A stretch of DNA of 32,000 nt from Puniceicoccales bacterium. GTDB lineage: Bacteria > Verrucomicrobiota > Verrucomicrobiia > Opitutales > JAIRLG01. The stretch spans positions 1-32,000 of the forward strand of contig JAITRB010000007.1 of NCBI GenBank assembly GCA_031288595.1, in the 5' to 3' direction. Of the stretch, positions 4,030-4,378 are shown in pieces; the stretch's first letter is position 1; every line of letters starts with the position of its first letter. Under the pieces are notes generated by a model that had not been told where the DNA came from, searched no databases, and saw only the letters and a program-made list of their open reading frames with translations. The position numbers and the translations under genes were made by a program.

Positions 4030-4378
4030 ATGGCGAGAGCTTGTCCGTATTGTCGAGGGGAGAGGAGCATGGGAGAATGTCCTGGGTGTTGGGAAAGAAT
4101 TTTCTCTCTTGCGGGTGTTTCTTCCGCGCGATGGCCCTTTGCGGAGCAAAGCTAGCGCCGGCGCGGAGCGCCGGTGCTCAGGTCGCAGCCCTTTTCTGGA
4201 AGAAGGGGGCTGCGACCGGCCATCGCGCGGACCTAGAAACTCTCTGCCGATTGGAGGGGGCCCCGAAAAGCTCTCTTTTTTCGAATGATGGAAGAGAAGA
4301 CTGCAACGTGTCTGGAGATCAGGGCTTATCGGCTTTGCTTGGCCTGGAGAATTTTGGGAAGCAAAGGGATGGATGCAC
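4030..4378 (+). repeat. copy A of a ~350-nt paralogous non-coding unit (partner at 10101-10463); contains cloverleaf element 1
   Basis: Aligns by eye along its whole length with 10101-10463, from ATGGCGAG to GGATGCAC, in the same orientation. Roughly three quarters of positions are identical, and about 90% in the palindromic core. Indels outside the core break any common reading frame. Both copies keep a CTCTTTTTTCG run (T6 at 4276-4281). Confidence 0.8.
4124..4230 (+). repeat. cloverleaf nested-palindrome element, copy 1
   Basis: Closing stem of 13 bp, 4124-4136 with 4218-4230. Hairpins: CTTTGC-GGA-GCAAAG (4137-4151); GCGCCGGCGC-GGA-GCGCCGGTGC (4155-4177); GGTCGCAGCCCTTTTCT-GGA-AGAAGGGGGCTGCGACC (4181-4217). 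Confidence 0.85.

Follow-up and report, generated by a model that had tools for sequence, protein, structure and literature searches.

Repetitive extragenic palindromes (REPs), bacterial interspersed mosaic elements (BIMEs) and REP doublets forming hairpins (REPINs) are among the commonest non-coding features of bacterial genomes. To our knowledge, nearly all of the described families of interspersed palindromes consist of single hairpins or hairpin dimers and come from Proteobacteria. Here, we describe a family of nested palindromes found in 32,000 nt of an uncultured Puniceicoccales bacterium (positions 1 to 32,000 of contig JAITRB010000007.1, assembly GCA_031288595.1; hereafter, the window). 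The window contains six copies, each of which folds as a single strand into a cloverleaf where a closing stem encloses three abutting hairpins (hp1, hp2 and hp3) around a four-way junction. The copies were first noticed in a reading of the letters alone (hereafter, the original prediction), and a literature search found no published description of such an element. The architecture is real and unusual and appears to be undescribed, and it reveals a more elaborate plan in the Planctomycetes–Verrucomicrobia–Chlamydiae superphylum, in which a four-way junction is closed by a stem and has two arms that are semi-conserved and a third that is hypervariable.

The cloverleaves share with REP, BIME and REPIN sequences an intergenic location, a G+C-rich, palindromic and multi-copy nature and stable single-strand folds, as well as long-term residence in intergenic regions, mosaics of modules and the lack of target-site duplications. 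However, a REP unit is one imperfect stem-loop of 20–40 nt with a GTAG/CGTC tag at its end, whereas here four near-perfect helices surround a junction and the ends are untagged: none of the 13 elements checked carries the tag at its ends, and the three incidental occurrences of GTAG/CTAC are all located in internal loops or linkers. Furthermore, unlike REPs, the cloverleaf copies within one genome are mostly dissimilar in sequence, and the REP-associated tyrosine transposase (RAYT) that is cognate to REPs was not seen within the approximately 130 kb of this clade that we analysed. GTAG-tagged REPs are reported to be abundant in Opitutus terrae, a member of the same class (PMC3733652). The terminal folds of linear replicons are also similar in some respects. 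In the 3′ overhangs of Streptomyces telomeres and the rabbit-ear termini of parvoviruses, an outer pairing likewise encloses short hairpins with 3-nt G-N-A loops such as GCA, which are closed by C-G and contain a sheared G:A pair, and flip/flop loop variants occur as they do here (PMC4513846). However, those folds stand at replicon ends and serve end replication via Tap/Tpg or NS1/Rep, whereas the cloverleaves are internal, lie among housekeeping genes and have three inner hairpins, one of them long and hypervariable.

Refolding of all six intervals reproduced the predicted plan. The minimum free energies (MFEs) obtained with RNA parameters range from −72 to −110 kcal/mol (z = −7.8 to −13.5 against dinucleotide shuffles), and DNA parameters yielded the same folds (z = −8.9 to −13.4). 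In the comparison with shuffled controls that the original prediction had proposed, the native folds were more stable than all 200 shuffles. A sliding 120-nt scan of the whole window gave a background of −38.6 ± 8.6 kcal/mol, from which exactly six places deviate by more than three standard deviations, and these are the six reported copies. We also built a sequence-independent detector, which is seeded by a long hairpin, folds its neighbourhood, and accepts multiloops with at least three branches, a closing stem of at least 7 bp and an MFE/length of −0.6 or lower. It returned six matches in the window but none in 72 dinucleotide shuffles of the window (2.3 Mb), none in approximately 1.05 Mb of other real genomes and none in 0.21 Mb of viral contigs. 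These genomes, mostly Planctomycetota, are the remainder of an FtsK-based genome scan that had yielded three close relatives. In 0.39 Mb of metagenome loci, which had been fetched by a chance-matching pattern, there was one unrelated match: a 121-nt multibranched structure (−82.8 kcal/mol) at 758–878 of a contig with a GC content of 68% (L135), away from the pattern match. The observation is therefore confirmed, and the occurrence of six copies is, as had been claimed, far beyond chance.

Searches of public collections by sequence pattern yielded no further copies. The pattern of copies 1 and 3 had no match in the genome contig collection, the core pattern matched 56 loci in metagenome contigs, all by chance and without a cloverleaf at the match, and the 21 viral loci matching the hp1–hp2 pattern were chance matches as well. 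Rfam 15, applied to the whole window at gathering scores, had no match at the elements, and permissive searches of the element regions and of the relatives' loci gave only sub-threshold generic hairpins. The best match to a bacterial cis-regulatory family, that of mraW to copy 2, was rejected, because it scored 26.9 bits against a cut-off of 50, stood among generic hairpins of similar score and was absent from the other element regions searched. Neither ARAGORN nor Rfam placed a tRNA at any element, with three and two tRNAs, respectively, found elsewhere in the window. Together with the absence of end tags, these results bear out the claim that the elements are not tRNAs, REPs or a known Rfam family.

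In the six window copies, the closing stem measures 12–22 bp, hp1 6–7 bp, hp2 6–11 bp and hp3 15–19 bp, the linkers are 0–2 nt long and the loops mostly 3 nt (Table 1). Several details of the original prediction were reproduced, namely the intergenic location of every copy (none overlaps a Pfam-supported gene or a tRNA), the inversion of copy 6, whose order is canonical on the − strand, and the modules shared between copies (GATTCC/GGAATC in copies 2 and 4, GGCCCGC/GCGGGCC in copies 4, 5 and 6). The details of copy 1 needed partial correction: GGA is indeed present in all three loops, but the closing stem consists of 14 rather than 13 bp and hp2 of 11 rather than 10 bp. The intergenic region contains the 3′ end of a gene or tRNA, at a distance of 46–231 nt, for five of the six copies.

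Table 1. Cloverleaf elements of the window and of its relatives (coordinates refer to the window for copies 1–6 and to the respective contig for the others; percentages in the last column are identities to the window or, where so marked, GC contents)
Feature	Position	Strand	Closing stem	hp1	hp2	hp3	Context and remarks
Copy 1	4123–4231	+	4123–4136/4218–4231	4137–4151	4154–4178	4181–4217	Copy 1/3 subfamily; canonical order (short, short, long) on + strand; 231 nt downstream of xseB (− strand)
Extended unit around copy 1	4030–4345	+					Homologous to 10100–10420 around copy 3
Copy 2	6599–6715	+	6599–6620/6694–6715 (22 bp including one G.T)	6621–6637 (GGATTCC)	6638–6652 (GCCTGC-GAA-GCAGGC)	6655–6693	Between murC (stop 6794) and atpA (start 6563), 36 nt before the atpA start codon; identical in Logan contig L001
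Copy 3	10194–10298	+	Extendable, imperfectly, to 10186–10305	10206–10220	10223–10247	10250–10286 (bulged, 6-nt loop)	Copy 1/3 subfamily; 185 nt downstream of ftsK (− strand)
Copy 4	13003–13102	+	13003–13014/13091–13102	13015–13029 (GATTCC)	13031–13051 (GCGGCCCGC)	13053–13090	Divergent intergenic region, 70 nt upstream of the ftsK start and 202 nt from tRNA-Val
Copy 5	17602–17700	+	17602–17613/17689–17700	17614–17630	17631–17647 (GGCCCGC-GCA-GCGGGCC)	17649–17687	Between convergent genes, ybeY (+) and a lipase-domain gene (−)
Copy 6	20226–20328	−	20226–20239/20315–20328	20300–20312	20281–20297 (GGCCCGC)	20240–20280	Canonical order on − strand; 46 nt downstream of tRNA-Leu (+), upstream of atpB
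L002, copy 3 ortholog	3172–3288						FtsK 85%
L002, copy 4 ortholog	475–567						FtsK 85%
L003, element downstream of ftsK							FtsK 85%; a second, garbled element at the contig start
L163, copy 6 ortholog	141–266						Lipase 81%; truncated copy 5 ortholog at the contig end
L007, element at the copy 5 site	3566–3659						FtsK 68%
L007, two further elements							One between lpxK and ftsK, one downstream of ftsK
L004, first tandem element	9424–9531						FtsK 69%, 48% GC; between lpxK and tRNA-Val; large, G+C-rich
L004, second tandem element	9573–9647						41 nt from the first; 75-nt AT-richer miniature, essentially the same element as that of L164
L164, miniature							FtsK 68%, 49% GC; 71 nt, same plan

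To find further members, contigs of relatives were fetched via FtsK, the lipase-domain protein and GlgP. Relatives down to approximately 68% FtsK identity contributed ten further full elements and two partial ones, for the most part in the corresponding intergenic regions. This brings the family to sixteen full and two partial elements, with units of 71–126 nt, all of them in the window and its closest Puniceicoccales relatives. The MAGs that carry the family are GCA_031278595.1, GCA_031255915.1, the Pcl387_bin136 assembly and JGI bins of samples 3300042590, 3300042612, 3300042618 and 3300042636. Read in one orientation, they have a common plan: a closing stem ending in ..CCTTT(G/C), hp1 (approximately GAGCCC-TTC-GGGCTC), hp2 (GCCCGC-NNN-GCGGGC), a linker of 0–2 nt, a long hp3 that differs in sequence almost everywhere, and the 3′ closing arm (G/C)AAAGG.... 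Copies 1 and 3 and the corresponding element of L002 constitute a subfamily with other stem sequences and the same plan. The claim of a single family in which the plan is kept while the sequence drifts is thus extended from the window to its relatives. In hp3 of copies 2, 4 and 6 and of three elements of relatives (L002a, L003b and L163a), the 5′ arm often forms a run of purines that includes GGAGG-like motifs, matched by a run of pyrimidines in the 3′ arm; the arms being palindromic, this pattern holds on both strands.

A covariance model built from the conserved core, R1, recovered every training element with 37–55 bits and found two new elements, whereas 514 kb of control genomes gave a single weak match (E = 0.15). 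An R1 match inside lpxK (13938–14009) was discarded as not being a real element (z = −2). No elements were found in 27.6 kb of two more distant relatives (L005 and L165) or in 20.6 kb of L166, which belongs to the same metagenome-assembled genome (MAG) as L004. In the murC–atpA spacer of L166, which corresponds to the site of copy 2, the edges are conserved and the middle is unrelated and unstructured (z = −1.4). An element is thus dispensable at a given site, and the family as found so far is limited to one subclade of uncultured Puniceicoccales.

Short-read assemblies break at these elements. Contig L001 stops within copy 1, L163 stops within the copy 5 ortholog, and L003 opens (positions 1–135) with homopolymer runs of C and G in place of the expected copy 4 ortholog; the ftsK and lipase genes of the closest relatives stand alone on contigs of 2.2–3.8 kb (P0121, P0122, P0001 and P0002). 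Recognition of the elements would therefore be of practical help in binning and in the finishing of MAGs. The breaks and garbled sequences might also suggest an artefact of assembly or of multiple-displacement amplification, with the palindromes being chimeric. However, assemblies made independently, from different samples and with different pipelines (JGI, NCBI MAGs and Logan), agree in the elements and in their sites, and the copies differ by ordinary substitutions, many of which are compensated, so that we regard the probability of an artefact as practically negligible.

The compensation was quantified by aligning, without gaps, structural excerpts of equal length that were taken from 11 elements and comprise 28 pairs: the eight junction-proximal pairs of the closing stem, hp1, the core of hp2 and the eight basal pairs of hp3. 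Standard pairs occupy 99.7% of the 308 alignment cells, a percentage that is partly built in, because the fold of each element determined where its excerpts were cut. The recurrence of the same four helices with many pair types is not built in by this procedure. At 23 of the 28 pairs, both sides have changed, and cells changed on both sides outnumber those changed on one side by 82 to 5. The covariation score is 0.78, compared with 0.23 in shuffles and at most 0.18 when the partners were slid.

The pairing is also conserved almost symmetrically on the two strands. Only 15 of 583 pairs (2.6%) are G.U on the canonical strand and five on the other, and the MFEs of the two strands agree within about 8%, mostly within less than 5%. 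Because every G.U pair corresponds to a C.A mismatch in the opposite strand, pairing has been kept on both strands, whereas many more G.U pairs would be expected for a structure selected on one RNA strand. We also considered whether a strand bias of G.U pairs marks an RNA strand, but rejected this because the G.T wobbles are mostly on the window + strand whatever the orientation of the element.

The loops show a further bias. Of 34 triloops, 24 (71%; p ~1e-14) are G-N-A (13) or T-N-C (11), mostly closed by C-G, compared with 12.5% expected by chance and 19% in the other 5-bp triloop hairpins of the window; after orthologs were collapsed, 13 of 21 remain (p ~1e-7). The G-N-A strand is often concordant within one element (three of three loops in copy 1, none of three in L003b). 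The loop sequences are not conserved across the family, in which TTC, TGC, TTT, GCA and GTA occur besides GGA. C-GNA-G is a known, extraordinarily stable mini-hairpin motif of DNA with a melting temperature of 76.5°C, whereas that of the tetraloop RNA r(GCGAAAGC) is only 39°C (PMC13037366), and the stability of the motif depends on the C-G closing pair (PMC3201870). Whether the elements act as DNA or as RNA was left open in the original prediction; the Watson–Crick symmetry, the C-GNA-G triloops on either strand and the flips and swaps described below lean towards DNA but do not settle the question.

With regard to the turnover of the elements, the original prediction that the copies are not simple sequence repeats holds for most of them. 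The exceptions are copies 1 and 3, whose cloverleaves are 86% identical over 103 nt; their flanks are approximately 70–78% identical, and about 320 nt can be aligned. Since the flanks are homologous, copy 1 represents a segmental copy of the copy 3 region and not a precise transposition of the cloverleaf. Replacement was observed between L002 and L003, in which ftsK is 90.3% and the downstream flank 91.4% identical, whereas the intervening block is non-homologous and of different size (227 versus 404 nt). The L002 block contains a cloverleaf of the copy 3 type, and that of L003 a different cloverleaf in the opposite orientation, the hp3 of which resembles hp3 of copy 2 in an otherwise different element. 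The lpxK–ftsK element lies on opposite sides of tRNA-Val in two lineages, and the hp2 loop has been flipped, since GCA and TGC loops are reverse complements.

Target-site duplications were not found: the best flanking direct repeats average 2.2 nt, compared with 1.8 nt for random pairs, and reach 5 nt in only one of 16 elements. This fits HUH-type or recombinational spread and not the cut-and-paste movement of miniature inverted-repeat transposable elements (MITEs). A sequence beside copy 2, CTTGCCTT(TT)GG, hinted that the closing stem might be copied from the target site, but this idea was rejected because matches between arm and flank (5.1 nt in 16 elements) do not exceed chance (5.6 nt). 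Bacterial MITEs, such as Correia/NEMIS, RUP, ERIC and Nezha, are likewise short, non-coding, intergenic and foldable, with inverted termini, and disrupt assemblies. The cloverleaves differ from them in having no target-site duplication, inverted termini that vary from copy to copy, no near-identical copies except copies 1 and 3, and three discrete hairpins instead of one long imperfect hairpin.

Two other systems deserve comparison. BOX elements of Streptococcus pneumoniae are similarly modular, with semi-conserved and variable modules, and are intergenic, variable in orientation and stable in predicted structure; the cloverleaves, however, appear to have no sequence relationship to BOX, their modules are individually palindromic, and a stem closes the four-way junction. 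The attC site of integrons is an imperfect palindrome with extrahelical bases that occurs at the 3′ ends of gene cassettes, in arrays beside intI. In contrast, the cloverleaf stems are near-perfect, their neighbours are housekeeping genes and tRNAs, and there is no integrase in the window.

We tentatively favour the view that the elements are resident, REP/REPIN-like repeats that are propagated and maintained as single-stranded DNA cloverleaves. The structures, the family, the covariation, the strand symmetry, the loop bias and the turnover are demonstrated, whereas DNA as the working form and any partner enzyme are inferred. Any single-stranded copy, of either strand, folds into a nearly perfect four-way junction, and such a fold may be exposed transiently in replication, repair or transposition. 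A structure-specific enzyme that generates no target duplication, such as a HUH- or RAYT-like protein, could then recognise it, or the elements may be renewed by recombination between copies. They behave like resident REPs, BIMEs and REPINs in being retained in the same intergenic regions over long divergence, yet they are also duplicated with their flanks, inverted and replaced by other family members. When transcribed, they would endow 3′ or intercistronic RNA with a very stable structure, which we take to be incidental or of secondary use and not the primary constraint. A bolder proposal, which we consider rather unlikely, is that they represent a new class of chromosomal recognition structures of single-stranded DNA, i.e. 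an interspersed four-way-junction counterpart of the rabbit ears of telomeres and inverted terminal repeats, which would be read, copied, flipped and kept perfectly complementary in both arms by a structure-specific enzyme (HUH-type, primase-like or junction-resolving) and would constitute a self-maintaining replicator distinct from the REP–RAYT system.

Several observations weigh against maintenance as single-stranded DNA. In the approximately 130 kb of the clade, we saw no transposase, RAYT or other candidate enzyme, nor is there a recognisable transposase remnant in the spacers that adjoin copies 1 and 3. GNA loops occur on either strand (13 versus 11), leaving a strictly strand-specific single-stranded substrate unsupported; the excess of G.T wobbles on the window + strand is explicable by the G+T skew of that strand, and the partly built-in component of the pairing percentage has to be discounted here as well. 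The elements are mostly located in intergenic regions that hold the 3′ end of a gene, and transcription would reach hp3 before the other hairpins in each of the four regions flanked by co-directional genes, although four cases are too few for significance. Finally, the retention of elements in the lpxK–ftsK and ybeY–lipase regions to approximately 68% FtsK identity suggests selection and not mere selfish persistence, and the AT-richer miniature in genomes of 45–49% GC likewise suggests selection.

These observations lead to the main rival explanation, serious but on balance doubtful, that the cloverleaf punctuates RNA. Transcribed in either orientation, it would end or protect transcripts as a factor-dependent or U-tract-independent terminator, a barrier to 3′ exonucleases or an intercistronic processing site of the RNase III type. 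The proximity of five of the six window copies to gene or tRNA 3′ ends and the leading position of hp3 in the four co-directional regions agree with such a role, and copy 2 is almost certainly transcribed, because it lies only 36 nt before atpA. Strong covariation, persistence at the same sites and the GC-adapted miniature also favour this reading. In addition, hairpin-plus-T terminators are not enriched between positions 3000 and 21000 (20 versus 19.3 expected), so that something else may mark transcript ends there. The cloverleaves resemble intrinsic terminators in being G+C-rich hairpins just after genes, with copy 5 between convergent genes, but they differ in having no U/T tract on either strand, a multibranched form of about 100 nt and one copy in a divergent promoter region. 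Consistent with this, no U-tract follows any copy, and none of those 20 terminator-like sites coincides with an element. The scarcity of G.U pairs, the equal pairing of the two strands and the bias to C-GNA-G loops, which stabilise DNA and occur on either strand, weigh against an RNA signal, as do the 5′–5′ position of copy 4, the change of orientation at the same site between close relatives and the lack of any element in the 20.6 kb of L166, including its murC–atpA spacer.

If DNA is the working form, the elements could instead be architectural or replication sites, i.e. cruciforms or junction mimics bound by gyrase, HU/IHF or a RuvA-like protein, or signals for single-strand initiation or priming on exposed lagging-strand template. 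The near-perfect junction with its linkers of 0–2 nt and the strong folds obtained with DNA parameters would suit this role, and the conserved junction-proximal CCTTT/AAAGG and the GCCCGC of hp2 could be a protein site. There are also precedents, as C-GNA-G mini-hairpins are present at single-stranded priming sites such as the phage G4 origin and ssiA (PMC13037366), and E. coli REPs and BIMEs are said to bind gyrase and IHF (PMC3733652). In duplex DNA, however, the closing stem gains nothing unless both strands are extruded over the whole length of about 100 nt, at a high kinetic cost, and the placement of GNA loops relative to the G-rich, presumably leading, strand is inconsistent (16 versus 8). 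Because the elements are absent from the 20.6 kb of L166 and from more distant relatives, a general chromosomal role is unlikely, and we judge this explanation improbable. The suggestion that the GGA loops form a sponge for a CsrA-type protein, or that the elements are trans-acting small RNAs, is very improbable. GGA is found in all three loops of copy 1, in one loop of copy 3 and in two of its ortholog, but the loops vary across the family and the idea of a protein sponge, which came from the original prediction, does not generalise. Moreover, the G and A of a C-G-closed triloop are expected to pair with each other, which would keep them from being presented (PMC4513846, PMC3201870); the elements are also not framed by a promoter or terminator and have no Rfam match.

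Beyond the single-stranded DNA reading itself, strict Watson–Crick symmetry combined with C-GNA-G triloops on either strand offers a way to separate structures that are kept as DNA from those that are kept as RNA. The family also provides test cases for the upkeep of perfect palindromes during complete sequence turnover, for whether structure-specific DNA enzymes other than RAYTs domesticate such elements, and for the fate of transcripts that contain structures of −100 kcal/mol beside the essential genes atpA and ftsK.

Concerning the gene content of the window, the identified genes are glgP, xseB, atpA, murC, ftsK, lpxK, a holA-like gene, a DUF502 gene, ybeY, the lipase-domain gene, atpB/F/H, ftsW, rng, ddl and ftsQ, in addition to three tRNA genes (9629–9705, 13304–13380 and 20096–20180). 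Going by the names of the closest homologues of FtsK, the lipase-domain protein and GlgP, the window belongs to uncultured Puniceicoccales (Verrucomicrobiota, class Opitutia). Each of the tRNA genes borders an intergenic region that holds an element, with copy 3 located 489 nt from tRNA-Met; this association is not significant (roughly p = 0.36, with 6 of approximately 13 intergenic regions occupied). Copy 1 lies in a 1.4-kb non-coding spacer (3034–4460, ~51% GC) between xseB and glgP, a position that is occupied by dxs in L166. The possibility that this spacer is a decayed dxs or transposase gene was rejected, as there was no tblastn match to dxs and its open reading frames have no Pfam match. 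Downstream of both xseB and ftsK, the motif CATC-NNN-CGAAAAAAGAG recurs on the gene-sense strand (4232–4300 and 10300–10375). Because it is also present in L003 (~2800–2830), where the cloverleaf is different, it may be a separate module of 3′ regions.

The genes for the F-type ATP synthase are split in the window (4977–6563 and 20692–23182). The atpA gene stands by itself, with murC and xseB as its neighbours. At a distance of 14 kb lie atpB, a likely atpE, atpF and a weakly matching atpH, with ftsW, rng, ddl and ftsQ immediately after them; ftsQ is not followed by ftsA or ftsZ. In the lower-GC relatives L004 (1806–4926) and L165 (3740–5172), repeated pairs of genes with a SocA_Panacea domain lie near ybeY and the lipase gene. 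These pairs look like toxin–antitoxin genes, and none is present at that place in the window. Finally, positions 28939–29418 of the window encode a protein of the CesT family (type III secretion chaperones), and a more distant relative encodes a secretin with a weak match to the type III secretion N0 domain (L005, 15758–17689), which together hint at a secretion system in this clade.

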